A DNA stretch of 39,579 nt from an uncultured Victivallales bacterium (GTDB lineage Bacteria > Verrucomicrobiota > Lentisphaeria > Oligosphaerales > JAFGRS01). Where the stretch lies: positions 1-39,579 of the forward strand of contig CAIZKT010000170.1 in the NCBI GenBank assembly GCA_903933565.1. Reading direction: 5' to 3'. Below the pieces are notes generated by a model. That model did not search any database. It worked only from the letters and a program-made list of their open reading frames with translations, and was not told where the DNA came from. Position numbers and translations under genes: made by a program. Shown in pieces: positions 5,775-38,594 of the stretch (position 1 is its first letter; each line of letters begins with the position of its first letter).

Positions 5775-5777
5775 AAC

Positions 5778-8838: not shown

Positions 8839-10014
8839 TCACTTCTCCATGAACAGGCCGTAGTGCCCCGCCGGTATGATCATCTTCCCCTGGTGGAACG
8901 CGACGCGGTCACAGTTGCCCTGCGACAGGTCATAGCAGCGGTCCCTGACCACAACCGGGTTCTCCGGCGCGGACAGGTCCAGCGTCACCACTTTCCCGTC
9001 GCGGCGCGAGGCGAACGCAACGAGGATTCCGCAGACCGTCGGAATCCCGCAGACCGGCATGTCGGCGACAGCGCCTTTGACCTCGACGATCTTTGGTTCC
9101 CCAGGCGATTTCGGGTCGATGAGCGCGAGCCGCGCCCCACGCACCGGGAACACGAACAGACCGTTCGCCAGCAGATCGATCCCGTCCAACTGATTGCCCT
9201 GCGGCGGGTTTCCCGTGGACGTCGCGACCGGTGCGGCACCGTTCAGGTCGTACCAGGCGATCCCGCGCGAATGCCAGTTGACCGGGAAGACGCCGTCCAG
9301 GTCTCGCACCGGGAACATGTCGCCGTAGAGAATGCCGCCGGCGCCGCCGCCGTAGACCGGCTTCATCCGCGTGCGGTCCATCGCGTCAAGGATGGAGAAC
9401 CAGCCCGTGCCGCCACTGACCGCGATATACCTGGCGTCCATGAAGGGATGCACAATCTGAACGCTCTGGTTCCCGTCCAACTGCCCGCGTCCAATCTCGG
9501 TCAGGTCGCCGTCCGCCGCGATCCGGTACACGGCCAGGTCCAGGTTGTTCTCCGCCACAAAGAGCATGTTGCCATGGACGCTGACATCGTAGACGCACTC
9601 GCGTTCCCACGTCCGCACTTCCTTGAGCCCGTCCGCGCCGATAGCGAACAGCTTCAGCCCGGCATGCGAAGCCGCGACGTAGACGAAGTCACCCTTCACC
9701 GCGACGCGCCGCACCTGGCAGTGAAGATCGTAGCGCTGCAGGCGCGGGTCGACCGCTTCCGGGACTTCAGCGGGGATATCGAACCGCAGCTTCGGCCGGG
9801 GTTGCCTGCAGGCGGCCGGGGCGCGCACCACGTGGATTCCGGTCGTCAATCCCGCGATGTAGACCACGCCATCACCGGTCGCCAGGCTGGCGCAGCAGTC
9901 GCTGCTGAGCTTGCGCTCGTCCGGGACCTGCCGTTTGTAGACGGGGGGCGGCAGCTGCAGATGGCCGAGACCCTTCATGTTCGATGAGCCAACAGCTCTC
10001 AGCGCGTAGGCCAA
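8839..10014 (-). CDS. Beta-propeller repeat protein, LVIVD-repeat-like; last gene of the giant-protein transcription unit
   Basis: Recurrent strand motifs: DGVVYIAGLTTGIHVV, GDFVYVAASHAGLKLFAI, GNMLFVAENNLDLAVYRI, ARYIAVSGGTGWFSILD. No obvious signal peptide. It is on the same strand as the preceding gene and 108 nt downstream of it. The antisense 422-aa ORF is R/D/H/V-rich junk. Confidence 0.65.
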   Translation of the reverse strand: MAYALRAVGSSNMKGLGHLQLPPPVYKRQVPDERKLSSDCCASLATGDGVVYIAGLTTGIHVVRAPAACRQPRPKLRFDIPAEVPEAVDPRLQRYDLHCQVRRVAVKGDFVYVAASHAGLKLFAIGADGLKEVRTWERECVYDVSVHGNMLFVAENNLDLAVYRIAADGDLTEIGRGQLDGNQSVQIVHPFMDARYIAVSGGTGWFSILDAMDRTRMKPVYGGGAGGILYGDMFPVRDLDGVFPVNWHSRGIAWYDLNGAAPVATSTGNPPQGNQLDGIDLLANGLFVFPVRGARLALIDPKSPGEPKIVEVKGAVADMPVCGIPTVCGILVAFASRRDGKVVTLDLSAPENPVVVRDRCYDLSQGNCDRVAFHQGKMIIPAGHYGLFMEK

Positions 10015-10121
10015 GTCTAAGATCCCGCACCAACCACCGGCGAACGAGGCGGTCAGCTCACCGGGTCACCAAGCCCCCGTGCGCGTGACCGCATACGGCC
10101 GTTGCGCACGAGCCCCTCGTA

Positions 10122-10853
10122 TCAGAGTTGGCCGGCGGTTACTGTGATCGGCACCACGCGAACGTCCGGCGGGCCACTACGGCCGTTGTCCAACTGCGTT
10201 CCCAGAACCACTCGCAGCAGATGCGCCTGGAGGTCGGCGACGGCCTGCTTGACGCTCAGGGACGAGGCGATGGGGCCCGTGCCGGTACCCGGGTAGCGGC
10301 TCTCGCCGAGAAGCGTGGTCACAGGCGGGACGCCGGTAGCCGGGTCGTCCGGGACCTTGACCAGGTACCAGCGCACGACGTAGGTGATGCGGTCGGCAGC
10401 GACGGCGGTCTGGGCCAGACGCTCGAACTGGCAGTCCAGGGTCCAGGTGTCGTCGGCGAGCCTAGCGATGGCTCCGAGAATCCGCGGTGGAACGGCAAGT
10501 TCGCAGTTGACCAGGATATCGTGGCGCAGCACCGTACCCGCCTGCCAACCGACCGTGGACAGGGCGGCGAGGCTGTTCTCCCCAAGCGACGTGAAACGGA
10601 TGGGCTGCACCGGAGTTGGCGGAATCGCGACCGAGTAGTGTGCCTGACCGAAGTCCTCCTGGAGGCTGGTCTGCACCGGTTGGCCATCGACGCTGAGCGT
10701 CAGGACCGTGCCCTTGGGTACGGGGGTACCGTTGACTAGTGCCACGCCATGCAGAACCATCGGGCGTTGTGGCGGTTCGGCGGCACCGGCGATGTAGCCT
10801 GCACCCAACAGGCAGCCGAAAGCGAGGGTGAGAAGAGTGTCTGAGCGGAGCAC
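10122..10853 (-). CDS. Secreted hypothetical protein (243 aa from the preferred start), no recognisable family
   Basis: The preferred start is GTG 10853, preceded by GGAGG with a 7-nt spacer. It gives MLRSDTLLTLAFGCLLGAGYIAGAAEPP, a clean signal peptide. The track start at 10907 adds 18 non-signal residues. An N-terminal Ig/CarboxypepD_reg-like stretch is VLHGVALVNGTPVPKGTVLTLSVDGQPV. It lies 108 nt downstream of the giant ORF on the same strand. Confidence 0.7.
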   Translation of the reverse strand: MLRSDTLLTLAFGCLLGAGYIAGAAEPPQRPMVLHGVALVNGTPVPKGTVLTLSVDGQPVQTSLQEDFGQAHYSVAIPPTPVQPIRFTSLGENSLAALSTVGWQAGTVLRHDILVNCELAVPPRILGAIARLADDTWTLDCQFERLAQTAVAADRITYVVRWYLVKVPDDPATGVPPVTTLLGESRYPGTGTGPIASSLSVKQAVADLQAHLLRVVLGTQLDNGRSGPPDVRVVPITVTAGQL

Positions 10854-10961
10854 GTCACGACCTCCTTGGACGGTTCGAGAAGGGCTTCCGTCCTGCCCTC
10901 CCGTCACGATTCACCCGTCACGATTCACGCCCCGAATCCGAGCCCTTGTCTCTCGCCGCGC

Positions 10962-20069: not shown

Positions 20070-20097
20070 TGCCTAGTTAAGTTACATTAGATAGTGG

Positions 20098-22929
20098 ATG
20101 GCGACTTTTCAACGCGGCGGAGGACAAGTGGTTCTTTGCGGCCAACGACGTAGGCCCCGCCTGGCGCTGACCCGCGGTTGGGTTGGGGCCGCTCTTCTCC
20201 TTGCCGGTGCCGCTTTCGTCGTGCCCGCCGCGGCCGAACCCCTCGGAGAGTACTTCGTCAACCTGGGCATCATCGAGCGTGGCGCCGGCAAAGTCATGGA
20301 CGACGTGTTCCCGGTCGAGATCCGGCCGTTGCGGGTGAACAACGAGGAACTGCTCACGCGCCTCCGCGGCTTCTCGTTCTATGACGGCGCGACCTACCGC
20401 TTCCTGCAGAAAGGCGCCGACTGGCGGCTGTTCAAGCTCGAGCCCGGCCGGCGGCCGGTCGAGATACGGCTCTACGGGATGATTTTCCCGCCGGCCCAGC
20501 GGGGGCGGATCATGATGCAACTGCGCCGGGTCGCCCCCATGGTCTTCAGCGAGTATGACCTCGAGAACAAACTCGCTCTGATGGGCGTGCTCGGCGTGGC
20601 CGTCAGCGGGGGTGTACTCCATGAGGCCTTCACCGAGGTGTGGAAACCGCCACCGCCCGAGGCCGGCGGGGCGTTTCCACGCGTGCTCCTGACCAATGGC
20701 GAGACGACCCTTGGCCGCTTCGCCTACGACAACTGGCTCGATGAACGCGAACCGGTCATCTTCACGGCCGACGACCGGGTGGCGATGCCGGAGGACCCGA
20801 CCGGGAAGCGCAAGTTCCTCAATGCCCTGATGCTCAAGATTGGCCCCAGTCAGGAGATGATCGACCTAGGTCTGAACAACGAGGACGACGAGATTTTCAT
20901 CTCGAAAGCGGACCGGTGTATCCCGAGCCAACTCAAGGTCGGCGGGGTCACCCTGCAACTGCCGGCCATGAAGGTCCGCTTTGTCTACGTGTCCCAGCGC
21001 GGCGACACCACGGGCTACGGCTCGGCCAAGGCCGCCTTCATCCCCGTGAAGCTCGGCGATGCCTACCTGATTCAGGTCTACCCGGCGGCGCTGACCTCAG
21101 TGTACTGCCTGCTCGGTGCGTTGCGGCGCGAGTTGTACCACGCCCAGTGGTGGAACGCGGTCGCGTATCTGGACGTCTCCGATGTGCGCCAGAACCGTCT
21201 GCGCGAGTTCCTGCTGCGCACGGACTGGTGCGTCTACGAGCAGGAGATTTTCGCCGCCGTCAACGGTGGCAAGACCGAAGTGGTCACCTTCGAGGCCGAC
21301 CAGGCGGCCTTCGACTTCGAGGCGCGCAAGGCCTTTCTGCTGGCCGTGGCGCGGGCCCGGATCAACCCGGAGTCGCTCGAGGCCGCCAGCGCCCTGCCGT
21401 GGACGTCCAATCGAGCCCTGATCATGCCATGCACGGTGCGCAAACTGGCGCCCGACAATACAGAGTTCAATGAACGCACCAGAGAGTGGTTCGCCCGGCA
21501 CGGTTGGCAGTTGCAGTTCAACCGGCGCGGCGGCGCCTTCTGCAGCCTGGCGGTGTTCGAGGCGGCCCCGACCCGGTTCGCGCCCGGCGACCGCGTGCTG
21601 CCGCTGGCCCGTGTCTATGCCGGCACGGTCGACCCGGGCGAGGCCCGGAACCTGCCGACCGCCGCCCGCAACCGCTTCTACGACTATCTGCGCCGGGCCG
21701 TGGCCAGCAACTACACCATGTCGCGGCAGGCGCGCAAGACCGGCCTGGCGTTTGCTCTCGAAGCGCTCAAGGAAGACGTGCGCCGGGCCACTCCTCTGAA
21801 GGATCGCCCCGCGCTGAACTTCGAGCTGCTGGATCGGGTGCATGCCGTCGGTTTCCAGTATTCCGACCCGGACTGGCTGCGGCTGATGGTGGATATCCTC
21901 GACCGCGATTACAGGTCTGCGGGCGGGGACGGCGCCGGCTATTTCGACATCCGGGGTATGACCGACCACCAAGGCGACCCGGCGCGCGCCGCCAACCGGT
22001 TTGTGCCTTCGGACGGCGACATCATGCGCTGCGATCGCCTGGACGAACTCGCCTACAGTTTCGAACGCACGGCGTACTATCAGCCTTGGGTTGCCATTGA
22101 GCCCTACCTGGACAACACGAGCAACTTGTACAAGACCGTGGCGGCAGAGATGAGCCCAGACGACAAATTCACGTTCGACAACGGCGGGGAAAATCTGCGG
22201 TTCGTGAAGCGCATCCATGACGAGTTGCACGAACTGTACATCGCCTTGGTTGGCGATGTGCAGGTGGTGGAAGGCAAGCCCACGGTGCGGAACAACCCCT
22301 GGGAAAACAACACCCGCGGGAGGTACCGGGCCGCCTACGTGGCGTGGCGGAGGCAGAACCCCATGCCGGCCTCTGAGCCGCCGGCCGTGCTTACCGCGCG
22401 GCTGGCCTATGAGGCGGCCGTGCGCACCTTCAGGCAGAGATTGGCCTTGCATATCCAGGTGATTCCCCAAGGAACCACCCGATGGGCGGAGGCCATGATC
22501 GAGGTCTGCCCCAGGGGGACCAAGGCGGGGAGAGCGGCGCGGCGCGAACTCGACTTGTTTCACGACCAAGCGCTGGCGCTCAGCATGGGCGAGAGAGCCC
22601 TTTGCGTGTCGCGCGGGGTCATGACCTGGCGCGAGCTCATCCAGGACTACCTCACCACCGATACCCCGCCCGCCAACAACAGGGCACGGGGCACGTGGCT
22701 GGACCTCGAGGCCTTCTACTGGCGTCGGCCGCTCGACGGCAACCCTCTCGAATTCTGCGACGCGGACGGCAAGGTTTTCGCAGGGGACCGCTTTGCCACC
22801 GTGGACGCCCTGCCGGAAGAGGAGATGCAACTGCCGGAAGAGACCAAAACCGAGGAGAGCAGTTCGGAGGATGACCCGCCCCCGAAGGAAGGGCTCGTCG
22901 TCGAGGTCCAGCCGGAGAAGAAGAACTAG
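20098..22929 (+). CDS. Secreted 943-aa orphan protein with acidic C-terminal tail, no recognisable family
   Basis: N-terminus QRRRPRLALTRGWVGAALLLAGAAFVVPAAAEP is a signal peptide. The composition is protein-like, rich in aromatics and mixed charge. The C-terminus is EEEMQLPEETKTEESSSEDDPPPKEGLVVEVQPEKKN. It is divergent from the giant ORF, and the antisense 577-aa ORF is compositionally junk. Confidence 0.8.
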   Translation: MATFQRGGGQVVLCGQRRRPRLALTRGWVGAALLLAGAAFVVPAAAEPLGEYFVNLGIIERGAGKVMDDVFPVEIRPLRVNNEELLTRLRGFSFYDGATYRFLQKGADWRLFKLEPGRRPVEIRLYGMIFPPAQRGRIMMQLRRVAPMVFSEYDLENKLALMGVLGVAVSGGVLHEAFTEVWKPPPPEAGGAFPRVLLTNGETTLGRFAYDNWLDEREPVIFTADDRVAMPEDPTGKRKFLNALMLKIGPSQEMIDLGLNNEDDEIFISKADRCIPSQLKVGGVTLQLPAMKVRFVYVSQRGDTTGYGSAKAAFIPVKLGDAYLIQVYPAALTSVYCLLGALRRELYHAQWWNAVAYLDVSDVRQNRLREFLLRTDWCVYEQEIFAAVNGGKTEVVTFEADQAAFDFEARKAFLLAVARARINPESLEAASALPWTSNRALIMPCTVRKLAPDNTEFNERTREWFARHGWQLQFNRRGGAFCSLAVFEAAPTRFAPGDRVLPLARVYAGTVDPGEARNLPTAARNRFYDYLRRAVASNYTMSRQARKTGLAFALEALKEDVRRATPLKDRPALNFELLDRVHAVGFQYSDPDWLRLMVDILDRDYRSAGGDGAGYFDIRGMTDHQGDPARAANRFVPSDGDIMRCDRLDELAYSFERTAYYQPWVAIEPYLDNTSNLYKTVAAEMSPDDKFTFDNGGENLRFVKRIHDELHELYIALVGDVQVVEGKPTVRNNPWENNTRGRYRAAYVAWRRQNPMPASEPPAVLTARLAYEAAVRTFRQRLALHIQVIPQGTTRWAEAMIEVCPRGTKAGRAARRELDLFHDQALALSMGERALCVSRGVMTWRELIQDYLTTDTPPANNRARGTWLDLEAFYWRRPLDGNPLEFCDADGKVFAGDRFATVDALPEEEMQLPEETKTEESSSEDDPPPKEGLVVEVQPEKKN

Positions 22930-25703: not shown

Positions 25704-25718
25704 CCGGCTGGGAGCCGG
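25704..25718. terminator. Small hairpin between convergent genes (weak candidate bidirectional terminator)
   Basis: CCGGCT-GGG-AGCCGG, a 6-bp stem with a 3-nt loop. It sits in the 94-bp gap between the sensor stop (25626) and the redoxin stop (25721). Confidence 0.15.
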
Positions 25719-25720
25719 TA

Positions 25721-26767: not shown

Positions 26768-26937
26768 GGCTGACTCCTCCTCTCGCGGATTCCCGCGCGG
26801 TCTTCTACGCTGCGCTTCCTAACATAGCACGGACATCTCGGCTCCACCGCCACCCCACCCGAGCTGAAGTGAGGTACTGGGATCCGACCGCGTGGTCATC
26901 TCTGGTCCAATCGAGCGTTTCTGAGATCAGCTGGGTG

Positions 26938-27591: not shown

Positions 27592-28079
27592 CGCGGTTTG
27601 ATCCGGGCCAGGCTGCCGCCGGCGGCGATCTCGATGTGCTGTTGCGCGCCGGTGTCATCGCTCAACACGAACAACAGTTCGTCCATGCCGCCCCACGGGG
27701 CGACGTCCCAGGCGACCTCAACGCCAGGGGTCAATTCCTGGCGATTGCGCACCACGCGCACCAGGCTGACGCCCGGCGGCAGTACCCACCGTCCGAGGCG
27801 CCCCTCGATCGGCTCAAGCACGACCGGGGCTGCGGGCGGCGACGCGATCTTCGCGACCCGCAGGCTGCGCCTGTCGGCGCTCAGAATTAGGCGGCACTCG
27901 GCGCCAGTGCTCGCCGCCAGGTCGCGGGTGGCGTTATGCACGATCATCACCTGTCGCGCGCTCTGCGCCAGGCGCAGGCTGCGGTAGAACTCGCCCAACC
28001 GCGGGGTACTGATGGCCAGCACGACGCTGACCATGCAGACCACCACCATCAGTTCGAGAAACGTGAACTGTTTTGTCAT
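27588..28079 (-). CDS. GspH/FimT-like minor pseudopilin
   Basis: MTKQFTFLELMVVVCMVSVVLAISTPRLGEFYRSLRLAQSARQVMIVHNATRDLA. ATG 28079 overlaps the gspF stop as ATGA. The track's 344-aa version (to 28622) is an out-of-context N-terminal extension lying over gspF. Confidence 0.75.
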   Translation of the reverse strand: MTKQFTFLELMVVVCMVSVVLAISTPRLGEFYRSLRLAQSARQVMIVHNATRDLAASTGAECRLILSADRRSLRVAKIASPPAAPVVLEPIEGRLGRWVLPPGVSLVRVVRNRQELTPGVEVAWDVAPWGGMDELLFVLSDDTGAQQHIEIAAGGSLARIKPR

Positions 28080-29347: not shown

Positions 29348-31024
29348 TCAGAGCTGGGTTACCCGCAGCACCTCCGCGGCCGTGGTCAACCCCTGCCGGA
29401 CTTTGTCTGCCCCGTCCTTCAGCATGGTAGCCATGCCCTGTTGGCAGGCCAGCTCGCGCAGTTGGTTGAGGGCCGTCTGAGCGCAGAGCAGCGGCCGTAT
29501 GGCCTCAGTGATTTCGAACAGCTCATAGACCCCGAGGCGGCCGCTGAACCCGGCGCCGTGACATTCGTCGCAACCGACGCCCACCTGGACTGAGGTCGGC
29601 AGCGGTTCCCCGACGGCCTCGAACAGCAGACGCTCCGTTTCGGCCGGGGCGCGGGACGTCTGGCAATAGGAGCAGATCCGGCGCACCAGCCGCTGGGAGA
29701 GCACCGCGTTGAGTGAGGCCGCCAGCAGATACGTGGGGATGCCCATGTCCGTCAGTCGAGTCAGGGCACTCACCGCGTCGTTGGTGTGCAAGGTTGAGAA
29801 GACCAGGTGTCCGGTCAGGGCGGCGCGGATGGCGATTTCCGCCGTCTCGGTGTCGCGGACCTCACCCACCATGGCGATGTCCGGGTCCATCCGCAGAATG
29901 CTGCGTAACCCGACCGAAAACGTGAGCCCGACCTGGGGGTTGACATGGATCTGCAGCACGCCTGCAAGGTGATACTCGACCGGGTCTTCGATGGTGATGA
30001 TTTTGATCTGCTGGGACTTGATGCTGGCCAGGGCCGCGTAGAGCGTGGTGGTCTTGCCGCTGCCCGTAGGGCCCGTCACGAGAACCAGGCCGTAAGGCCG
30101 TGCGATCTGTCGCCGGAACGCCGCCAGCACCGCGTCTGGGAACCCGAGGCGGGCCAGATCGAGATTGAGACTGCCCTCATCGAGGATCCGCAGGACCACA
30201 CCCTCGCCGTGCAACGCCGGGACGGTCGCGATGCGCACGTCGTAGGGCCGGTCCATCAGGCGCAGGCCGATGCGGCCGTCGAGCGGCAGGCGGTGCTCGG
30301 CGATGTTCAGACCGGCCATGATCTTCAGGCGCGAAACCAGTGCCGGGTACGTCGCCGCCGGCACGCGGGCCACCTCGTGCAGGACCCCGTCCACGCGGTT
30401 GCGGACCACGGCTTCGGTCTCGCCCGGCTCGAGATGAATGTCGCTGGCACCTTCGGCTACGGCCTGCATCAGCAGGAGATTGACCTGCTTGATGACCGGC
30501 GCTTCGTTGGCCAGCTCGGCCAGGGAGCGGTCGTCGCGGGCGGCGGCTCCCGTGGGCTGTGTCTCAACGCCGCCGGGCACGGTCTCGCCGCTGGCGCTCT
30601 GCTTGCACCACTCTCGGGCCCGCTCCATCTTGGCGCGGCTGACAAGCACCGGCCGCACCAGCCATCCGGTTACCTGCCGACAGCGGTCGAGCGATTCGAC
30701 GGCCTCGAGGTCGACGACGGCCACGAGCACGCGCTCACCCTCCCGCTTCAGGGGCAGGAACTCCTGGCTGTCGCGTAAGTCCGGGGGCAACGCTCGCCAG
30801 CACTCAGGGTCGAGGCCCTTGACCCCGTCCAGATCGAGCCATTCGACGCCGTACTCCGCTGCGACCGCGGGGAGCAGAGCATCCTCGCGGATGTGCCCGC
30901 CTTGCAGGAGGGCATCGAGGAGCGTGCGGTCGCCGCTCACCGCCAGGGCTTCGAGCTCGCGCAGGCGTTTGCCGTCGAGCCAGCCCTTGGCAAGGATCAG
31001 TTCTTTGAGTGTTTCGCGGTGCAT
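29348..31024 (-). CDS. gspE: Type II secretion ATPase GspE/PilB family
   Basis: Walker A is GPTGSGKTTTLYA. The Asp box/Walker B region is IITIEDPVEY ... MVGEVRD. The His box is GHLVFSTLHTN. The tetracysteine motif is CSYCQ ... CDECHGAG. There is an N-terminal T2SSE_N-like domain. Confidence 0.95.
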   Translation of the reverse strand: MHRETLKELILAKGWLDGKRLRELEALAVSGDRTLLDALLQGGHIREDALLPAVAAEYGVEWLDLDGVKGLDPECWRALPPDLRDSQEFLPLKREGERVLVAVVDLEAVESLDRCRQVTGWLVRPVLVSRAKMERAREWCKQSASGETVPGGVETQPTGAAARDDRSLAELANEAPVIKQVNLLLMQAVAEGASDIHLEPGETEAVVRNRVDGVLHEVARVPAATYPALVSRLKIMAGLNIAEHRLPLDGRIGLRLMDRPYDVRIATVPALHGEGVVLRILDEGSLNLDLARLGFPDAVLAAFRRQIARPYGLVLVTGPTGSGKTTTLYAALASIKSQQIKIITIEDPVEYHLAGVLQIHVNPQVGLTFSVGLRSILRMDPDIAMVGEVRDTETAEIAIRAALTGHLVFSTLHTNDAVSALTRLTDMGIPTYLLAASLNAVLSQRLVRRICSYCQTSRAPAETERLLFEAVGEPLPTSVQVGVGCDECHGAGFSGRLGVYELFEITEAIRPLLCAQTALNQLRELACQQGMATMLKDGADKVRQGLTTAAEVLRVTQL

Positions 31025-31056
31025 GTTCGATCTACGTCAGCACGATTACGTCCGGG

Positions 31057-31497
31057 CTACTCGAGAGCCCGCCAGATGGACTCCGGCACCTGCCGCGGCG
31101 CGCGCACGCCGACCACCGGCCGGTACTTGACCTCGCAACCTTCCTGATATTTCTCCAGTTGCCCCTGCCGCGCCAAGGCACGGACCAGCACCGGCAGATC
31201 GTCCACTGTCTGCAACTCTGGCAACCTGGCCATCTCGACGAGAGTCAGGCCCGGATGCCGCAACAGGACGAGGTAGACCTGGCGCAGATCATCAGACAGA
31301 TCGATGGCCGCCAGCAGTCCGCCCGTCGCTGCCGGTGGGCGGGTATAAGCAGCGGCGTCCGGCACCGGCGCGGGCGGTGGCGGCGGCGCCGCCGTTCCCG
31401 GCGCAGCCTCGGCCGCCTGCAGGTGCCGGATGACGTCGTCCAAGCGCACGCGCAAGGCCTGCAGTTCCGCTACCAGATGGGTGCGTTCTTCCGTCAC
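31057..31497 (-). CDS. Coiled-coil / Pro-rich linker / winged-helix (MarR-like) protein, unknown function
   Basis: The preferred start is GTG 31497, 4 nt after the ParA-like stop. The track start at 31587 would overlap that gene by 86 nt. Parts: N-terminal helix TEERTHLVAELQALRVRLDDVIRHLQAAE; linker AAPPPPPAPVPDAA; wHTH-like LRQVYLVLLRHPGLTLVEMARLPELQTVDDLPVLVRALARQGQLEKYQEG.EVKYR. Confidence 0.6.
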   Translation of the reverse strand: MTEERTHLVAELQALRVRLDDVIRHLQAAEAAPGTAAPPPPPAPVPDAAAYTRPPAATGGLLAAIDLSDDLRQVYLVLLRHPGLTLVEMARLPELQTVDDLPVLVRALARQGQLEKYQEGCEVKYRPVVGVRAPRQVPESIWRALE

Positions 31498-31501
31498 GGT
31501 A

Positions 31502-32254
31502 TTACTCTGCTTGCAGCGCGGCCACCACGTGGAGGAGCTCCTGGGCCCAGGGCTCGCGCGGCGACACGCGCAGACACAGGTCCGCACTTCCCAGTTCGAG
31601 CAATTTCGGGCTCAGGGGCAGCACTCCGACGACCGGACAGCCGAAGACCTCTTCGGCCTGGCGTCGCACCTGGGCCGGATCGTGGGCCGCCGAAACTTTG
31701 TTGATCACCAGCAACAGGCGGCGAGCCCGCAAGCGCCGCGCCACCTCGACGGTGACGCTTGTGCCCTGGAAATCCTGTTGATCGGGCCGCAACACCACCA
31801 GCACCAGGTCGGCGACGGCAATGGACAGAAGCGTCTCCTCATTCAGCCCCGGGTGCGTATCGATGAGCAGGTGCTGCAACTCCAATTTCGTCAGCAGCTC
31901 GCGGAACCCCTGGTTGAGGCGGCCGACGTCGTATCCCTGTTTGAGGACTTGCGCAATGTCGCTCATGTTCATGCTGCTGGGGATCAGGAACAGGCGTTGC
32001 GGGGGCAGCCCGACAGCGGCCGATACGTCTCGGGCCACGGCCTCGATGGGGGCCCGGCCCCAGAGGAAGTCGTTGAGGGTCTGAGCGGCCGGTGGCTGAC
32101 CCCCCAGCAGCACATGGATGCCCGGCGACTGGATGTCGGTATCAATCACGCCGACGCGGCGGCCAGCGCCAGCCAGGGCATAGCCGAGGTTTGCGGTGAT
32201 GTTCGATTTGCCGGTGCCGCCACGGAACGAGTGTATAGCAATGATCTTACTCAT
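31502..32254 (-). CDS. ParA/MinD-family P-loop ATPase embedded in the secretion operon
   Basis: MSKIIAIHSFRGGTGKSNITANLGYALAGAGRRVGVIDTDIQSPG carries a deviant Walker A with Arg in place of the signature Lys. Walker B-like is LLIDTHPG. The ATG overlaps the gspD stop by 8 nt. Confidence 0.85.
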   Translation of the reverse strand: MSKIIAIHSFRGGTGKSNITANLGYALAGAGRRVGVIDTDIQSPGIHVLLGGQPPAAQTLNDFLWGRAPIEAVARDVSAAVGLPPQRLFLIPSSMNMSDIAQVLKQGYDVGRLNQGFRELLTKLELQHLLIDTHPGLNEETLLSIAVADLVLVVLRPDQQDFQGTSVTVEVARRLRARRLLLVINKVSAAHDPAQVRRQAEEVFGCPVVGVLPLSPKLLELGSADLCLRVSPREPWAQELLHVVAALQAE

Positions 32255-33920
32255 GGTCCTGCGCCTGCTCCGACTTTAGCGCCTCGATGTGCTTGGCCCT
32301 CGCGGCCTCCTCTTGGGTCAACCGCGTGCCCTCGTCACTGGTGGCCACCACGTACGGAGTGATGAATACCAAGAGCTCGGTCCGTTCCTTCCGCCGATTT
32401 TGGCTGCCCAGCAGCCAACCCAGCCCGGGGATACGGGACAGGTACGGGATGCCGGTCTGGTCACTCCGCGAGGTCGCCCCGATCAGACCGCCGATCACCA
32501 GCGTGTCGCCGTCCTTGACGATGACGCTGGTCTGGGCTTCGCGCTTGCCGATCAGCGGCGCGCGGACGTTGCCCGGGAACTCGATTTCAGAAAGGACGCT
32601 GGTGATCAGCATCGTTATGTCCAGGGCGACATCGCGGTCGACGTTAATGCGCGGCGTCACCTCCAGATTGATACCCACATCCTTGTAGACAAAATCGCTG
32701 ACCGTCTTGCCCGCGCCAGCCTCCTGGCCGAGGTCTGTAACCGACTTCAGAATCGGCTGCTCCTGGCCGACCGTGATCTTGGCCTTCTGGTTGTCGGTGG
32801 TGAGCAGCCGCGGACAAGAAAGGATAGTGATCTTGCCATCGGTGGCCAAGGCATGGATCAGGCCTTCGAAGTTCTCCCGCGTCAAGGTGACGGCAAGCGA
32901 CGGATCGGTCAGCGAGCGGCCCGCGGCAACCTTGATCACGGTCTTGTTGCCGCTGGCAAGGTACTTGGTGATCGCGGTCGAGAAGCCTGTAGTCTCGGTG
33001 AAGGAGGCCTCGACGATGCGGGCCTCGATGAGCACCTGCAGGCGTCGGACGTCAAGACTCTCGATGGTCTGCAGGATGTCCGTATGCAACGCCGGGCTGG
33101 CCGTAACGATTATGGAGTTGGCCGCCTCAACCGGCGTCAACCTGACGTCGCCCGTCGCCCCGCCCGGCGCCCCGCCTGCCGCCGTCTGCCCCGCCTGCCG
33201 TCCCGTGTACACCTTCTCGAGAGCGTCTCCGAGGTCCTTGGCCTTCATGTAGCGCACGGGGTAAACGACCGTAGTGGTGGCGGCTTCCTGGGCCGGTTTT
33301 TCCTTGTCAAGCAGGCCTGCCAGCAGCACCAGGCGGCGGATGTTGCTGGCTATGTCGGTCACCACCAGCGCGTTGGTGTTGTCGTTGGCGAACGAGTGCC
33401 CGCTGCTCGACACCAAGGGCCGCAAGGCCTCAAGAAGCTGCTTCGCCTCGACATGGACCACCGGCACAACCTGGGTGATGACGCGATCCTCGTCGGGGAT
33501 CGAGTCCACCTCGCTGCCGTAGCGGACCTCGACGGGCTTCTGCACCGCGTCGGTCTTCTTGACCACCTTCAGGAGCTTCTCGGTCCGGATCAGGGTAAGC
33601 CCGTGCGCGTCGAGCACCGCCTCCAACACCAGGAAGGCGTCGTCCATGCTCAGACTCTTCGGCGCGAAGACCGTCACTTTGGTCTTGACGTCGTCACCCA
33701 TCACCGTCACCAGCCCGTTGAGCTTACCCATCAGGTTGACGAACGATGCCAGCTCGACGTCGCGCAAGTCCAGGGTGAGCCGGCCGTCGGTGTCGGCACG
33801 GACGGGGACCGGTTCCGTCGGCGGAACCCCCGCTTCCTGAGCCCACGCCACGCCGACGCACGCCAGTAGGAGGTACGACCACGCCAAGAGGCAGCCAAGC
33901 TGATGCCATTGCGTACGCAT
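32247..33920 (-). CDS. gspD: Outer-membrane secretin GspD/PilQ family
   Basis: Signal peptide LGCLLAWSYLLLACVGVAWAQE. N0/N1-type repeats are present (VELASFVNLMGKLNGLVTVMGDDV ...). The C-terminal secretin domain reads ...VIVKDGDTLVIGGLI ... GIPYLSRIPGLGWLLGS ... ELLVFITPYVV. Confidence 0.9.
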   Translation of the reverse strand: MRTQWHQLGCLLAWSYLLLACVGVAWAQEAGVPPTEPVPVRADTDGRLTLDLRDVELASFVNLMGKLNGLVTVMGDDVKTKVTVFAPKSLSMDDAFLVLEAVLDAHGLTLIRTEKLLKVVKKTDAVQKPVEVRYGSEVDSIPDEDRVITQVVPVVHVEAKQLLEALRPLVSSSGHSFANDNTNALVVTDIASNIRRLVLLAGLLDKEKPAQEAATTTVVYPVRYMKAKDLGDALEKVYTGRQAGQTAAGGAPGGATGDVRLTPVEAANSIIVTASPALHTDILQTIESLDVRRLQVLIEARIVEASFTETTGFSTAITKYLASGNKTVIKVAAGRSLTDPSLAVTLTRENFEGLIHALATDGKITILSCPRLLTTDNQKAKITVGQEQPILKSVTDLGQEAGAGKTVSDFVYKDVGINLEVTPRINVDRDVALDITMLITSVLSEIEFPGNVRAPLIGKREAQTSVIVKDGDTLVIGGLIGATSRSDQTGIPYLSRIPGLGWLLGSQNRRKERTELLVFITPYVVATSDEGTRLTQEEAARAKHIEALKSEQAQDHE

Positions 33921-33995
33921 GTCTGTGCTCTAGCCCTTTCGCCGCCCTTGCCGACCTCGCCTCGAGACCGCCGCCGCGGGGGCCACGGCGGACCA

Positions 33996-35285
33996 TCATA
34001 GCAGCGTCAGGGTCAGGTCCAGTGTCTGCCGCTGACGCTGCACCCGGATCGCCACGGTCGTACTCGGGCGCAAGCCCCGCAGTACCTCCATGACCTCCCC
34101 GACTGAGCCGACCCTGACCCCGCCGACCTCCCGGATCACGTCGTCGATCAGGACCAGGGCATCCGGCCGCGATACCCCGGTCACCAGCAGAGCGCCGCCG
34201 CCTTCACCGAAGCGGGCCTGCGCTTCCTCGGCGGTGAGTTGTCTCAGGGACAGCCCCAAGCGTGCCGGCGCCACCGGCGCGGCTGACGTCTCGCCGCGCT
34301 CCGGACCCGTCGCCGACGCGGTCGCGGTGGTGGTACCCAGAGCGAGGGGCGGTACGGTGGTCTGGGGCAGAACCAGCCGGGCTGTCTGCCCGCCGCCCCG
34401 AGCCTGGAACGTAACTCCGCCTGCGTCCACGGTATGCACTATCCACTCGCGGTACAACTCACCCCGCGAGAGCAAGAGGTCCGCCTTGCCGTCGCCGTCC
34501 GCCAGCACGGCCACCTGCTGTCCGGCGATCTCAGCGACACCCCGTAGGACCAGGGTACCAAGCGTCGGGTCGGCTGGTTGCTCTGGCGGCGGCGGCACGG
34601 GGGCGGGCGGCGGCGCCGCCGACGGTGCCGCCACAAGGTCGGTTTCAGCCTGGGGGAGCGTCTTCGGTTGCTTGGGCTGGAACAGGTCGTCGGCCAAGGC
34701 AAGGGGCGACTCCGCAGCCGCGGCAGTCGCCCCCCCCAGACGCACGATGGATTCCTGGGGCAGCAAGTCAGCCCGTAGGTGGAACCGGGGTGGGCCGTCC
34801 GCGGTCTCGCCGCGGGATACCGTCACCTCGGTGACTGCCATGCCCTGCAGTTCCCAGAGCAGGCGGTCGAAAGCCTCGATCGTGGCGTGCCCCTCGAGCA
34901 CGAAGCTGTCGATCACCTGGGTGGTGCCATCTGCAAGCAACCGGGGCATGGGGCGCAGGTTACTCACCTCGACGTTGGCCGCAGCCGCGGCCTTGCCCAT
35001 GGCCTTGAGAACATCCGCGAGCGCGGCGCCGACGCCCGGCAGACGCAGCCCGGTGTGCCACACGGCCACCCGCTGCAGGAGCCGCTCATGGTCTTCTCGC
35101 CAACTGCGCAGTTCGCGCAGCTTCTGTTCCTGTTTCCAGACTTCCTTGCGCCGTGCTTGCACCGTCTGCGCGCTCCGCCGCACCTTGGCCTGGAGCGGGT
35201 CGAGATAGCCCACATAGGACCCGGCGCCCACGAGGAACACCGCGAGGGCAATCACGAAACGTCGGTCGCGCGGGCTCAGTTTCAC
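33996..35285 (-). CDS. Fusion protein: PilO/GspM-like N-terminus + PilP/GspC-HR-like domain + C-terminal PDZ domain
   Basis: TM plus coiled coil is RRFVIALAVFLVGAGSYVGYLDPLQAKVRRSAQTVQARRKEVWKQEQKL. A ferredoxin-like PilO/GspM body follows. The Pro-rich linker is APPPAPVPPPPEQP. The HR/PilP-like part is LVLRGVAEIAGQQVAVLADGDGKADLLLSRGELYREWIVHTVDAGGVTF. The PDZ-like part is GGGALLVTGVSRPDALVLIDDVIREVGGVRVGSVGEVMEVLRGLRPSTTVAIRVQR. The GTG start overlaps the upstream stop as GTGA. Confidence 0.7.
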   Translation of the reverse strand: MKLSPRDRRFVIALAVFLVGAGSYVGYLDPLQAKVRRSAQTVQARRKEVWKQEQKLRELRSWREDHERLLQRVAVWHTGLRLPGVGAALADVLKAMGKAAAAANVEVSNLRPMPRLLADGTTQVIDSFVLEGHATIEAFDRLLWELQGMAVTEVTVSRGETADGPPRFHLRADLLPQESIVRLGGATAAAAESPLALADDLFQPKQPKTLPQAETDLVAAPSAAPPPAPVPPPPEQPADPTLGTLVLRGVAEIAGQQVAVLADGDGKADLLLSRGELYREWIVHTVDAGGVTFQARGGGQTARLVLPQTTVPPLALGTTTATASATGPERGETSAAPVAPARLGLSLRQLTAEEAQARFGEGGGALLVTGVSRPDALVLIDDVIREVGGVRVGSVGEVMEVLRGLRPSTTVAIRVQRQRQTLDLTLTLL

Positions 35286-36622
35286 GGCCTCTCCGTTGCG
35301 GGAGCCGCAGCTCCCGGACCGTCGGTTCCGTCGGCCCGCAGGCGGAAGCTCAACTGGAACTCCACACCTTCGCGGCGGGCTTCACTGAGGATCAACGCGA
35401 CGTCGGTCAGGCGAGCGCTGCTGCTCAGGGCTTGGACATAGTCGGTCACGCGCTCGTAGTCCGGGCTTCTCCCACTCGCCAGCAGGACGCCGCTGAGCCG
35501 ACCCGAGAACACGGTCAGATACACCGCGGGTGGCCGGGCTGCTTCGAGGACCGCGAGGATCTCGTGCCAGCGGCGCGGGCTCTCGATCCCGACGCCGGCC
35601 GTTGCGGCCAGTTCTGTCATGGCCGTGACGTCGCTCGTCAGGTCGCTCAGTTCGCGGTACCGCGGCGCGAGGGCATGCAGGCGGCCATCCAGGGCCGCGC
35701 ACTGGTTCTGGTTCTGGCGCCATTCGCCTTCGTAGTAGAGAGCCATCGCCAAGGGCCACAGAGGCAAGCTCCACAGCAGTCCCCGACGCAGCGCCCCACG
35801 CAGGTGCCCGGCACGCGGGCGCAGGTCCCAGCGCCGGAATCGGCGACCGCGCGCATGAAAGGCCGCCAGGCCCGCCAGGACCCATCCTGAGCCAGGCTCA
35901 ACCCCGGCGTCGCCTAGGTCCAAGCATTCCTCGGGTGCGATCCAGTGGACGTCGCCAAACAGCTCTGGCGTCAGTCGCGCCGCCACCTCCGGGAGCGCGG
36001 ACGAGAAAATCAGCGTGCGGTCAGGCCGCAACGGGCGTCGTTCCTCGCGCAGATAGACCGCCTGACAGGCGAGACGCAGGTCACGCACCAGGTCGGCAGC
36101 GTCGGCGGCGTCACCGCGCGGCCCCTGAGGCAGCGGGATCTCTCGCATGAGCACGATCTCGGCGCCGGCCATCATCACCGTCAAGACCCGTCTCTCGTCC
36201 AGGCACACGAGCAGCGTGTTCCTGTCGCTGGCGAGGGACTCGCGCAGGAGCATCAGACCAACCAGGGCGAGCGGCTCCGGAACGACACACTTCACGCCGC
36301 CCGCCACGGTCGACGTGGTGGCCAGGAGCAGTAGGCGGATGCCGCGTTCGCCTTCAGCCACTTGCCAACGCACCGTGGCCGGATCGACATTGGGCAGGTG
36401 GAAACCGGCCTGCAAACGTATGGCCTCGCGCAGCTCCCCCGGCTCCATGGGCGGCAGCGAGAGGTCCTTGAGGATCACCTCAGTCAACGGCAGCCCCACC
36501 ACGGTCAGTCGCGCTCGGGCGCCAGCCGCTTCCGGCACGGTACGCACGCGAACAGATCGTCCCGCCGTGACCGCCTCTGCGGCGAGGAGCGAACCGTTGC
36601 GGTTGATGGCCACCAGCGACAA
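35282..36622 (-). CDS. Fusion-type assembly-platform protein: PilM/GspL-like cytoplasmic (actin-fold) domain + TM + PilN/GspL-like periplasmic part
   Basis: The N-terminus LTVVGLPLTEVILKDLSLPPMEPGELREAIRLQAGFHLP is PilM-like. The central TM is LLWSLPLWPLAMALYYEG. It is followed by a coiled-coil/ferredoxin-like tail. The position matches gspL/pilMN in such operons. The start is TTG 36622, with an alternative GTG at 36613. Confidence 0.65.
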   Translation of the reverse strand: MSLVAINRNGSLLAAEAVTAGRSVRVRTVPEAAGARARLTVVGLPLTEVILKDLSLPPMEPGELREAIRLQAGFHLPNVDPATVRWQVAEGERGIRLLLLATTSTVAGGVKCVVPEPLALVGLMLLRESLASDRNTLLVCLDERRVLTVMMAGAEIVLMREIPLPQGPRGDAADAADLVRDLRLACQAVYLREERRPLRPDRTLIFSSALPEVAARLTPELFGDVHWIAPEECLDLGDAGVEPGSGWVLAGLAAFHARGRRFRRWDLRPRAGHLRGALRRGLLWSLPLWPLAMALYYEGEWRQNQNQCAALDGRLHALAPRYRELSDLTSDVTAMTELAATAGVGIESPRRWHEILAVLEAARPPAVYLTVFSGRLSGVLLASGRSPDYERVTDYVQALSSSARLTDVALILSEARREGVEFQLSFRLRADGTDGPGAAAPATERP

Positions 36623-36626
36623 CGCG

Positions 36627-37532
36627 TCAACCCCCTTCCATCCACAGCACTGTCAGGCCGGCTTTCGAGACCTTCACGACACCTTCGAGTTGACGTTGGA
36701 CGCCACCGGCTGCGCCTGTCGCCCGGATGCGGAAGTACTCCGGCGTCACCTTTACCCAATCGGCCAGGGCCTGGAAGACCGCCGGGGTCACGCCCGGTAT
36801 GTGTTGCAGATCCTCGACCCGCGTGAACGTTCGGCCGCTGTCGAGATACTGCCGGATCTCGCCCGCCAGTTGCGCGTCGACACCCGGCAGAACGCGCAGG
36901 ACTTCAGCCGGGCACTCATTGATGGCGACGCGTCCGCGGTGGTACGGCGTTACGAGTGCGGCCAGCCCCGGCGTTTTGTCCTGACCGTAGTAGCAGGCGC
37001 CGTCCATGCCTTCGACTTGCCACAGTTCCTCCAACACTCGCACGCCGCCAGCGGTTGCGCGCTGGCGCAGGAAACTGGCGACGGCTTCCGCCTGCGTGGG
37101 CGAGACCGTCGGCAGTCGGCCCAGGCTGACGGCGTTCAGGCGCGACAGCGGCGCCTTGGCGTCTTCAACGGCGACCTCGCACCAGCATGGGGCGACGCCC
37201 GGCTCCGGCGGCTTCTCTGTCGGCTTTGCCGACCAGTCTGCGGGCTCGACGGTCCACGTGCCGATGCTCTCGTTGCGGCGGCCGTTTGGGGCTGTGTCCA
37301 GCCCCTGTTCCGCCCGTGATCGGAGCGCGGCGGCCACACGCCAGAAGCCGGCGCGGGCCAGACCCGCTGCGTCCATCTCGCGCGTGGCGTAGCCGGCGGC
37401 CTTGAGATTGCTACTGACTCGCATCGAGACGGTAAGCAGCAGCAGCGTCAGAACGGCCGTTACCCACAGGGTCAGCAACAGGGCGTACCCGGCTTCACGT
37501 CCGCGGCGTTTTCTCGCGCAGATCTTTGTCAT
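36627..37532 (-). CDS. gspK: GspK-like minor pseudopilin with C-terminal helix-hairpin-helix repeats
   Basis: The preferred ATG at 37532 gives MTKICARKRRGREAGYALLLTLWVTAVLTLLLLTVS, the GspK N-terminus pattern RG.ALl.vLw....L. HhH motifs are NECPAEVLRVLPGVDAQLAGEI and VEDLQHIPGVTPAVFQALADWV. The track's 449-aa version is an upstream extension over the preceding gene. Confidence 0.75.
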   Translation of the reverse strand: MTKICARKRRGREAGYALLLTLWVTAVLTLLLLTVSMRVSSNLKAAGYATREMDAAGLARAGFWRVAAALRSRAEQGLDTAPNGRRNESIGTWTVEPADWSAKPTEKPPEPGVAPCWCEVAVEDAKAPLSRLNAVSLGRLPTVSPTQAEAVASFLRQRATAGGVRVLEELWQVEGMDGACYYGQDKTPGLAALVTPYHRGRVAINECPAEVLRVLPGVDAQLAGEIRQYLDSGRTFTRVEDLQHIPGVTPAVFQALADWVKVTPEYFRIRATGAAGGVQRQLEGVVKVSKAGLTVLWMEGG

Positions 37533-38115
37533 CGCTGTTGTCTTTGCGAATGGCCGCCATCGCCAGGCGGAACACGGTACACAGCGGCAGGGCGTCGGGT
37601 CCGGCACCGACCGTACCGTTGACGCGTACGGCTTCGGGTATACCGTCGCGTGCGGCGTCGTGTTCCGCCACCCATTGGCCTCGCCACAAGTACTCGAAGC
37701 GGACCTCGCACGCTTCACCGAGAAGCACGGTCGTCTGCGGGTTCTGGACCGCCACGCCCGATACTGGCTTCTCACAGCGGACCAACTGCCCCGCCTGCCA
37801 CTGGTAAGTGACCCAGCACGGGGGCGCCAAGGGCCGGGCGCTGCGGACCAGGAACGTAAAACCATCGGCAGCGCAACGGCAACCAGGCAGCGCCACCGGC
37901 ACCATTCGGGCCATGTCGCCTTCCAGGATGTGCATTCCCCCGCGGGCGTGCGCCAAGAGTGCGCCGCGCTCTTCACCGATCCGGTAGGCTTGCAGGCCGC
38001 TGTGGAACGCCGCTACCAGCGCCGTCGTGATCAGTCCCAGCACAGTCACCGCCACCAGGACCTCCAGCAGAGTAAAGCAGCGGGACCGCGGCCGTCTACC
38101 AGTTGCCGATGTCAT
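37495..38115 (-). CDS. GspJ-like minor pseudopilin
   Basis: The preferred ATG at 38115 gives MTSATGRRPRSRCFTLLEVLVAVTVLGLITTALVAAFHSGLQAYRIGEE ... ILEGDMARMV. It overlaps the gspG 3' end by 20 nt. Confidence 0.7.
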   Translation of the reverse strand: MTSATGRRPRSRCFTLLEVLVAVTVLGLITTALVAAFHSGLQAYRIGEERGALLAHARGGMHILEGDMARMVPVALPGCRCAADGFTFLVRSARPLAPPCWVTYQWQAGQLVRCEKPVSGVAVQNPQTTVLLGEACEVRFEYLWRGQWVAEHDAARDGIPEAVRVNGTVGAGPDALPLCTVFRLAMAAIRKDNSDDKDLREKTPRT

Positions 38116-38512
38116 CCTGAGAGCCTTCCCGCCCGTCGGGACCGCACGAGAACAGGTCGTAGGAGCGCGGGTTACGTGTGCCTGGGCTCCTGTAGGCATA
38201 CTTCCCCCCCCATGCGTCCGTGGCGATCTCCTTCTGCAGATACGGCCCTTTCCAGCGCGGCGGCAGCGGCGGCTGAGTCGGCGCCTCGACCAGAGCCCGC
38301 AGTCCCTGGTCGGTCGTAGGGTAGCGGCCGCTGTCGAGTTCGTAGGCGTCCAGAGCCGTGGCCAGGATGCCGATCTGGTTCTGAGCCGCGCTCAGGCGCG
38401 CCTCTTCGGTTCGGCCCGTGAACTTGGGCAGGACGATCGCAGCCAGGACGCCGAGAATGATGACCACGACCATGATCTCGATGAAGGTGAACGGCCGCGG
38501 CTGTTGATTCAT
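38096..38512 (-). CDS. gspG: Major pseudopilin GspG
   Basis: The preferred ATG at 38512 is preceded by GGAGGGA with a spacer of about 9 nt. It gives MNQQPRPFTFIEIMVVVIILGVLAAIVLPKFTGRTEEARLSAAQNQIGILATALDAYELDSGRYPTTDQGLRALVE ... WKGPYL ... DAWGGKYAYRSPG ... YDLFSCGPDGREGSQDDIGNW. This is near-textbook GspG except for the -1 residue. Confidence 0.9.
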   Translation of the reverse strand: MNQQPRPFTFIEIMVVVIILGVLAAIVLPKFTGRTEEARLSAAQNQIGILATALDAYELDSGRYPTTDQGLRALVEAPTQPPLPPRWKGPYLQKEIATDAWGGKYAYRSPGTRNPRSYDLFSCGPDGREGSQDDIGNW

Positions 38513-38565
38513 GGCCTGTCTTCCCTCCATTGCAGCGGGATTAGTCACATAGCTCCACGAGTTCA

Positions 38566-38594
38566 CATATAGTACCCCACGCGCGCCGATGCAA
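38566..38594 (-). promoter_or_regulatory. Candidate sigma70-type promoter of the secretion operon
   Basis: On the minus strand: TTGCAT (38594-38589), 17 nt spacer, TATATG (38571-38566). This leaves a 5' UTR of about 45 nt before the gspG ATG. It is motif-level evidence only. Confidence 0.3.

Follow-up and report, generated by a model that had tools for sequence, protein, structure and literature searches.

A candidate cargo-dedicated type II secretion variant with its own four-gene module in an uncultured Victivallales bacterium

Organization of the locus

The DNA analysed here, which we refer to as the window, is one entire contig of 39,579 bp (GenBank CAIZKT010000170.1) from an uncultured Victivallales bacterium, and it carries a type II secretion system (T2SS) operon together with four genes for putatively exported proteins that we refer to as the module (Table 1). 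The module genes encode a two-domain thioredoxin-fold (Trx-fold) protein, a 243-amino-acid (aa) protein (p243, of the p250 family), a 943-aa protein (p943, of the p900 family) and a 3,035-aa giant. An earlier reading made from the sequence alone, the original prediction, had described this as an orphan giant-protein module next to a self-contained secretion operon. The genes that it described are real and lie approximately where it placed them, as confirmed by the map of open reading frames (ORFs) and by periodicity in third-codon-position GC content (GC3), which at 0.77-0.89 for the mapped genes supports their coding status.

The T2SS operon comprises 12 genes running from 38512 down to 26938 in the order GspG, J, K, L (PilN-like), M/C (PDZ), D, ParA/MinD, p146, E, F, H, I, with the Trx-fold (redoxin) gene directly downstream; both the operon and the redoxin gene are now established to lie on the minus strand. 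Independent assemblies made from other samples reproduce the gene order and the gene junctions, among them 51.7-kb contigs that run beyond both ends of the region of interest; the arrangement is therefore genuine, and an assembly chimera is ruled out as its source.

Table 1. Positions of the module, secretion and neighbouring genes in the window, with the matches on which their assignments are based
Feature	Coordinates	Strand	Matches and remarks
GspG major pseudopilin, 138 aa as called	38096..38512	-	Pfam T2SSG 4.3e-34, 117 bits; 51-76% identity to GspG of module-linked loci
GspJ-like minor pseudopilin	37495..38055	-	Pfam N_methyl + T2SSJ; homologs in L085, L091, L093, L095
GspK-like minor pseudopilin, 301 aa as called	36627..37532	-	Pfam HHH_3 9.6e-13, T2SSK_1st
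GspL-like assembly-platform protein, C-terminal PilN domain	35282..36622	-	Pfam PilN 1.6e-6 (weak match)
GspM-like N-terminus fused to C-terminal PDZ (GspC-like), 429 aa	33996..35285	-	Pfam T2SSM 8.8e-7 (weak) + PDZ_2
GspD secretin	32247..33920	-	Pfam Secretin 8.6e-46, Secretin_N x2, type_II_gspD_N0 2.2e-11
ParA/MinD-family P-loop ATPase, 250 aa, Walker A RGGTGKS	31502..32254	-	Pfam CbiA/AAA_31/ParA; NCBIfam minD_arch 1.9e-23
p146, 146-aa ParA partner; start overlaps ParA stop	31057..31497	-	C-terminal ~75 aa conserved
GspE secretion ATPase, N-terminal MshEN domain	29348..31024	-	Pfam T2SSE 8e-131, MshEN
GspF inner-membrane platform protein, called as 403 aa	28076..29287	-	Pfam T2SSF 1.1e-61
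GspH-like minor pseudopilin, 163 aa	27588..28079	-	Prepilin-type N-terminus KQFTFLELMVVV; tblastn matches to pseudopilins of T2SS loci, L095 among them
GspI-like minor pseudopilin, 127 aa	26938..27321	-	Prepilin-type N-terminus AFTLLEVLVAAAV; tblastn matches pseudopilins in many T2SS loci
Module gene 1: putatively exported two-domain Trx-fold protein (redoxin), 348 aa	25721..26767	-	Pfam AhpC-TSA/Redoxin
Module gene 2: p250 family, putatively exported, 243 aa	10122..10853	-	Signal-peptide-like N-terminus
Module gene 3: p900 family, putatively exported, 943 aa (933 as called)	20098/20128..22929	+	No Pfam match
Module gene 4: putatively exported giant, 3,035 aa	10962..20069	-	Pfam Crystall and Inhibitor_I36 only
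HAMP-GAF membrane protein, 881 aa	22981..25626	+	Pfam HAMP + GAF; four hydrophobic segments
LVIVD-repeat protein, probable beta-propeller, 379 aa	8839..9978	-	Pfam LVIVD E = 4.5e-6
Large secreted amidase, gene cut by contig end	2-3092/3367	-	Amidase_2 + BACON + fn3-like + Listeria-Bacteroides repeats

Conservation of the module and its secretion genes

The gene context of p900 was read in ten lineages (related loci are denoted L followed by a number), and the proteins of the window were compared with each by tblastn or blastp. In all ten readable lineages the p900 gene adjoins a homolog of the giant, cut by contig ends in several, and a p250 homolog adjoins both; homologs of the 943-aa protein are thus not scattered. 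A gene for a Trx-fold protein adjoins p900 in seven of the ten, and the redoxin, earlier set apart as its own unit, belongs to the four-gene module. A co-directional T2SS is linked to the module in five of the ten: the window and four lineages that are colinear with one another, namely L085 (with L084; Joint Genome Institute metagenomes), L091/L092 (a 'Thermodesulfobacteria' metagenome-assembled genome, MAG), L093/L094 (Desulfuromonas-like) and L095 (an NCBI MAG). The T2SS-linked lineages span 35-67% GC, and in the four colinear ones the genes lie on one strand in the order GspG-J-K-L-M/C-D, Trx, p250, p900, giant. The spacing is tight: in L091, L093 and L095 the GspD stop overlaps the Trx start by 4 bp and the gaps onward through the module to the p900 start are -4 to 78 bp, and the gap between p900 and the giant is -4, 66 or 334 bp. 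In L094, the 2,716-aa giant is followed after 26 bp by a ParA gene (57% identity to that of the window), a gene for a 110-aa protein (37% identity over 75 aa to the p146 C-terminus) and GspE; in this lineage, therefore, the module sits within one T2SS operon, flanked by GspD and ParA. The adjacency described in the original prediction is real, and the link was understated. In L095, GspF and two pseudopilin genes precede GspG.

Compared with this colinear order, the window is a rearranged version, in which the ParA-p146-E-F-H-I block has come to lie after GspD and ahead of the Trx gene, the p943 gene and an inserted sensor gene are inverted, and the p243 gene now follows the giant. As annotated, the divergent giant and p943 genes start just 28 bp from each other (20069-20098); taken with the colinearity seen in relatives, this spacing argues for a local inversion and probably for start codons that are called too far upstream.

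The secretion genes also distinguish these loci. A generic comparison set of 80 T2SS loci was retrieved through GspE, these being the best 80 of at least 590 GspE-confirmed loci. The GspD of the window scores 332-463 bits against module-linked loci and no more than 152 bits against the generic set; the corresponding values are 97-238 bits (28-44% identity) and at most 56 bits for GspK, whose generic match is to a single locus (L058, 25% identity), and 79-92 bits and at most 40 bits for GspJ. Homologs of GspL and GspM/C were detected only in module-linked loci and in none of the 80 generic loci, from which ParA, p146 and the module genes are also absent. The closest GspE loci in GTDB representatives have best-segment identities of 39-54%, mostly 39-47%, and among the matches listed none is accompanied by the module or by ParA. 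The module-linked T2SS genes are a clade of their own, apart from the 80 generic loci, and since this distinct clade is found with the module we conclude that machine and module have been co-inherited. The proposed functional link of the secretion operon with the giant and the 943-aa protein therefore gains support both from conserved adjacency and from the presence of a T2SS of the same clade in at least five lineages.

The machine itself has most of the components expected of a T2SS: a GspD with N0 and N domains, a GspE-type ATPase with a GspF platform, and GspG together with minor pseudopilins H, I, J and K, of which H and I were recognized by their prepilin-type N-termini and by tblastn. 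GspC, L and M are represented in the window by weak matches (T2SSM at 8.8e-7, with PDZ_2 fused to it, and PilN at 1.6e-6), and the GspC HR domain was not detected. Membership among type IVa pili is not indicated, there being one ATPase, of GspE type, no PilO or PilP, and a major subunit that matches T2SSG. Nor is the system a Tad pilus, in that its 250-aa ParA is MinD-like (23.3 bits against CpaE_hom, for which the cut-off is 154), it has a single GspF platform protein and RcpC is absent. A regular-expression search of GspE for the MshEN cyclic di-GMP motif gave no match. The original prediction had placed a ParA and a winged helix-turn-helix protein in the operon; the former is confirmed as ParA/MinD, and for the latter, p146, no library supports a winged helix-turn-helix and there is no family match. 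Because the block of ParA, small-protein and GspE genes follows the giant in L094, the ParA/small-protein pair appears to be a conserved part of the machine.

The genes linked to this machine are rare. In an index of 5.8 billion sequences, the 943-aa protein matched itself and just one 31%-identical protein, and the giant matched only itself. When 1.84 billion cluster representatives were searched exhaustively with HMMER and a two-sequence profile, the p900 family comprised 21 clusters of 188-1,318 aa, approximately 15 of them full length; an 18-sequence p900 profile recovered just three proteins in a word-index search. None of 18 p900 family members has a meaningful Pfam domain, and p900 patterns gave no match in GTDB representatives. 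Searches of the orphans against Pfam, NCBIfam, PHROGs and PADLOC returned only crystallin/I36, LVIVD, HAMP, GAF and redoxin, and p250 has no match in Pfam, NCBIfam, PDB, PHROG or PADLOC. Sequence and profile searches of PDB yielded coiled coils only for p900, and crystallin and ricin-B only for the giants. The orphans therefore still have no family assignment; a defence system or a phage-derived element was also considered and rejected, there being no matches. The source labels on p900 family members are Deltaproteobacteria, Desulfuromonas, Thermodesulfobacteria and Lentisphaerae MAGs. Family alignments reveal conserved motifs in each of the orphans: YH[AT]QWWN in p900, GPPxxPM(I/V)xxGE in p250 and PPxGFxFxD...GF...FPxP in the giant core.

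Identity to the window is 21-40% for the module proteins, compared with 51-76% for GspG, 57% for ParA and 36-45% for GspD; GspJ, K, L and M/C, at 23-44%, overlap the range of the module proteins. The faster divergence of the module proteins relative to GspG, ParA and GspD fits exposed cargo, albeit only loosely.

Module proteins and neighbouring genes

Each of the four module proteins has one hydrophobic segment only, at its N-terminus, and the signal peptides seen in homologs are typical, which suggests that all four are exported through Sec. The giant is colinear over its full length with homologs of 2,685-2,946 aa in L088, L090, L094 and L095, at 23-30% identity. Its best-conserved block, residues 1300-1750, is beta-rich and peaks at 45-52% identity around residues 1551-1700, and a second block spans 2800-3000 and has a Cys-rich CCCW...CWP motif at its end; an insert specific to the window occupies residues 1750-2000. 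It is within this insert that a DUF4214 domain had been proposed, for which the score (20.9 bits) is below the cut-off of 23.2. Self-BLAST of the giant detected no internal repeats, and the only recognizable domains are two βγ-crystallin domains at approximately residues 2120-2200 and 2350-2410 (Crystall 1.7e-9, Inhibitor_I36 1.1e-4, with Spherulin and Protein S matches in the profile search). Microbial βγ-crystallins carry an N/D-N/D-x-x-S/T-S calcium motif, and the first crystallin unit of the giant contains two copies, DNSISS and NDQASS, at approximately residues 2150-2197; the calcium binding that these imply is a prediction. A βγ-crystallin is present in all four full-length giants scanned, and those of L090 and L094 also have a ricin-B lectin. 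In L096 and L097, two independent assemblies, the giant is divided between two ORFs (1,282 + 1,359 aa; L096 5786-13733).

The p900 proteins have a conserved N-terminal region of ~600 aa and a helical C-terminal half. An AlphaFold2 (AF2) model of p900 built from a 19-sequence alignment has a predicted local distance difference test score (pLDDT) of ~90 in the N-domain, a moderately confident middle and, again, a helical C-terminal half. The p900 gene is split (445 + 462 aa) at L088 9391-12055, in a long-read contig, for which a frameshift error is a possible cause.

The Trx-fold assignment is clear for the C-domain of the redoxin (AhpC-TSA 2.2e-8; ResA structures at 3e-7 to 8e-8 in the PDB profile search), and the N-domain of ~180 aa is without a match. 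Homologs lie directly after GspD in L085, L091, L093 and L095 (34-40% identity), and others are found in L001 and L096. The CxxC motif is kept in four of the seven proteins (L085, L091, L093 and L096) and lost in the window (SxxC: S-Q-R-C), L001 (SxxC) and L095 (absent), so that the window protein does not have the catalytic motif. Given its loss in three lineages, catalysis is not the conserved requirement of this protein. At residues 230-237 of the window protein (26069-26080, FCSPRSQRC) the first Cys of the CxxC is gone and another Cys is present four residues earlier.

Several other genes of the window have been suggested to belong to the system. The HAMP-GAF sensor has no full-length homolog in any related locus, its sole match being a 67-aa piece, possibly HAMP, at the C-terminus of a dCache protein in L091; in the original prediction the sensor, ParA and the proposed winged helix-turn-helix protein were all controllers, and of these the ParA/small-protein pair is conserved and the sensor is not. 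The L091 dCache protein (350 aa; 1140-2192) is encoded on the same strand as GspG and ends 7 bp before it, and L096 has a dCache gene downstream. Sensors recur beside this system without being orthologous, and the HAMP-GAF protein is a lineage-specific neighbour and possibly a regulator. In the low-GC lineages L088 (623-3931) and L089 (223-3704), genes for a HisKA kinase, a response regulator and a sigma-54 activator precede the p250-p900-giant triad, which hints at sigma-54 control of the module in these two lineages. The LVIVD propeller, previously placed in one unit with the giant, has no homolog in any related locus and no N-terminal signal-like segment; in L090 an unrelated GSDH propeller occupies the same position after the giant. 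We conjecture that regulators and a propeller partner have been recruited lineage by lineage.

The amidase gene, speculatively given an attack or attachment role, is an unrelated neighbour with no homolog in the gene lists of related loci. A toxin-antitoxin pair and genes of glycoside-hydrolase and sulfotransferase-like type separate it from the system, and it occupies a region (2-3367) whose GC content of 0.56-0.60, compared with ~0.67 elsewhere in the window, suggests a foreign origin. Since the amidase, the sensor and the propeller are not conserved in related loci, we reject all three as components. The toxin-antitoxin pair (BrnT and CopG families, 86 + 75 aa; 8113-8590, minus strand; precomputed Pfam on an identical contig) is between the propeller and melibiase genes, and plus-strand ORFs scanned across the same interval gave no matches. 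Melibiase and arylsulfotransferase-like genes lie at 4851-7820, and versions of the contig of 42.8-51.8 kb encode, upstream of the T2SS, a heparinase II/III-like lyase of 1,047 aa that carries F5/8 type C domains and a PcRGLX-like protein of 1,159 aa; together these genes suggest that the host degrades polysaccharides. The ~1 kb upstream of GspG (38600-39579) is without a GC3-supported ORF; public gene calls put a 232-aa gene there, the translation of which resembles low-complexity non-coding sequence, and this region may be a long leader or regulatory region. Scans of the window for Rfam families and tRNAs gave no match, nor did a scan of the plasmid collection, and predictions of promoters and terminators were uninformative.

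Interpretation and comparison with known systems

The reading that we favour, and regard as moderately probable, is that the locus encodes a distinct, cargo-dedicated T2SS variant with its own four-gene module. The roles that we infer for each module protein and for ParA would be as follows. The Trx-fold protein, p250, p900 and the giant would enter the periplasm via Sec, each by its one N-terminal signal-like segment, and the giant would fold there, with the TlpA/ResA-like protein probably serving as a holding or folding factor; its redox chemistry would be optional, since CxxC has been lost in three lineages including the window. The giant, perhaps travelling in a complex with p250 and p900 or otherwise assisted by them, would then be driven through the GspD secretin by GspE/F, a platform of GspL and GspM/C-PDZ, and a GspG pseudopilus with an H-I-J-K tip, and would end at the cell surface or in the medium. 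The βγ-crystallin domains, and the ricin-B lectin of relatives, could make it a Ca-stabilized, glycan-binding adhesin or attack factor, and the ParA/MinD ATPase with its small partner may position, license or gate machine assembly, as TadZ does in Tad pili.

A number of observations weigh against this reading. Synteny is the sole basis on which export or display of the giant by the T2SS is proposed, and we know of no established T2SS substrate as large as a folded protein of ~330 kDa. In L096/97, where ~3.5 kb were read upstream of p900 and ~10 kb downstream of it, no T2SS was seen, and the genes upstream of the module in L088 and L089 are the two-component and sigma-54 regulators described above; the T2SS side is cut by a contig or locus end in L001, L088, L089 and L090. 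ParA and its partner are confirmed in two lineages only. A prepilin peptidase gene (GspO/PilD) is present neither in the window nor in the gene lists of the longer contigs, which does not exclude T2SS membership because this gene often sits elsewhere in the genome. The structural models that had been suggested as a check were made for p900 and the giant core, and neither was assigned a fold: the giant-core AF2 model (6 sequences; pLDDT 57, predicted template modelling score 0.38) predicts long antiparallel strands, its best Foldseek match (E 0.087) is not significant and the many beta-barrel and beta-sheet proteins retrieved are treated as meaningless, and for the p900 model Foldseek gave no PDB match with E < 0.5, so that neither provides a functional clue.

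In one alternative, which we consider unlikely, none of the giant, p900 and p250 is cargo; all three would be structural parts of an envelope organelle built on a T2SS-like chassis, a new functional class of the type IV filament superfamily. Such an organelle might, for example, be a fibre or conduit of beta-sheet that crosses the periplasm or lies outside the cell, with a coiled-coil stalk formed by p900. The position of the module inside the operon, between GspD and ParA-GspE, with overlapping genes as for stoichiometric subunits, would suit such a role, as would the colinearity and conserved length (2,685-3,035 aa) of the giants, the predicted long antiparallel beta meander of their best-conserved region, the long helical or coiled-coil half of p900 and the occurrence of this T2SS clade only with the module in the data at hand. 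Against it, the signal peptide is the only membrane-spanning segment of the module proteins, these proteins evolve faster than GspG, ParA and GspD, lectin and crystallin domains typically occur in proteins that are secreted or at the surface, and the giant-core model is too uncertain for any architecture. It is equally doubtful that the cluster is more than a T2SS with a large substrate and represents a hitherto unrecognized machine of that superfamily, conserved yet rare across several anaerobic phyla, in which a ParA-positioned T2SS-like chassis assembles or extrudes the ~330-kDa beta-sheet protein with its coiled-coil and small beta-rich partners as a surface organelle for contact-dependent attachment or attack.

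Less likely than the structural organelle, and in our judgement quite improbable, is a pilus-forming type IV-like system in which the giant is presented at the tip as an adhesin akin to PilY1 or MshQ and is not released. The PilN domain of the GspL-like protein and the MshEN domain of GspE are compatible with a pilus, four minor pilin-like genes including that for a GspK-like tip protein are conserved with the module, and lectin and crystallin domains suit an adhesin; yet the major subunit matches T2SSG strongly (117 bits), the GspC-like PDZ protein, the GspK with HHH_3 and the GspD N0 secretin are hallmarks of a T2SS, and the locus lacks a PilT-like retraction ATPase as well as PilO and PilP genes. 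That a housekeeping T2SS lies by chance beside unrelated genes for large surface proteins is very improbable, in spite of the giant/p243 and p943/sensor units of the window being on different strands and apart from the T2SS and of the L096 module having no T2SS in view, because the same adjacency and order, with overlapping reading frames, recur in distant genomes (five lineages of 35-67% GC, at 21-40% protein identity) and the T2SS clade is distinct from generic ones, so that chance adjacency is excluded.

Several known systems resemble parts of this cluster. With the canonical Gsp T2SS (Klebsiella Pul, Vibrio Eps, Pseudomonas Xcp) it shares the GspD N0/N domains, GspE/F, GspG and H-I-J-K and, on weak matches, possibly GspL- and GspM-like proteins and a PDZ-bearing GspC-like protein; it differs in fusing the GspM-like and PDZ parts in one 429-aa protein, in the PilN domain of its GspL-like protein, in the ParA/MinD ATPase and small partner between GspD and GspE, in the absence of GspO, GspN or a pilotin from the locus, and in the four module genes conserved with it. 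The T2SS-beta of Escherichia coli is described as dedicated to a large surface-exposed, secreted cargo, SslE/YghJ, whose gene accompanies the system genes (PMC5012682, PMC3707838), and the window cluster likewise has a putative cargo gene beside machine genes. The putative cargo of the window would be ~330 kDa, has no M60 or other known catalytic domain and is accompanied by three further conserved, putatively exported proteins, whereas SslE is a ~165-kDa M60-like lipoprotein.

Giant genes of Omnitrophota are preceded by a conserved T2SS-like locus and a peptidyl-prolyl isomerase (bioRxiv 10.1101/2023.11.21.568195; 10.64898/2026.06.07.730766). The likeness lies in a very long gene by a T2SS/type IV pilus-like locus of more than 10 genes, in a periplasmic folding catalyst (the isomerase there, a Trx-fold protein here) and in adhesion and carbohydrate-binding domains. 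Unlike the Omnitrophota giants, which exceed 30,000 aa and have many transmembrane regions and a divergent SecA-DEAD, that of the window has 3,035 aa, one hydrophobic segment and no SecA domain; the Omnitrophota secretion locus has RcpC/Tad-type parts, its protein families differ from those of the window cluster, and the lineage labels found here are Deltaproteobacteria, Desulfuromonas, Thermodesulfobacteria and Lentisphaerae, not Omnitrophota. From T2SS-beta and the Omnitrophota loci alike, the window cluster differs in protein families, cargo size and architecture, the ParA insert and host lineages. TadZ is a ParA/MinD-type localization factor of Tad systems and is considered specific to Tad and archaeal systems and not to T2SS (PMC6668835). 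The window likewise encodes a ParA/MinD-superfamily ATPase within a type IV filament gene cluster, but as a bare 250-aa MinD/ParA domain, unlike TadZ/CpaE with their N-terminal receiver-like domain. The Trx-fold protein resembles ResA/TlpA in its C-domain, which matches ResA structures and the AhpC-TSA/Redoxin Pfam families, and in its signal peptide, and differs from them in its extra ~180-aa N-terminal domain and in having SxxC for CxxC.

In summary, we found no description of this cluster in the literature, and it constitutes a T2SS clade that is rare, occurs in several phyla and has a four-gene module of undescribed families embedded in it, defining three protein families that are without relatives in Pfam, NCBIfam or PDB. 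Proteomics usually identifies T2SS substrates singly, and to our knowledge there is no general T2SS secretion signal; a presumptive cargo encoded in the same operon across phyla provides a natural pairing for the study of substrate recognition. If a protein of ~330 kDa does pass the secretin, it would be the largest T2SS substrate of which we are aware. The cluster also adds a putative positioning ATPase of ParA/MinD type, earlier associated with Tad and archaeal systems, to a T2SS, and it widens the pattern of a giant gene beside a T2SS-like locus plus a folding catalyst beyond the Omnitrophota.

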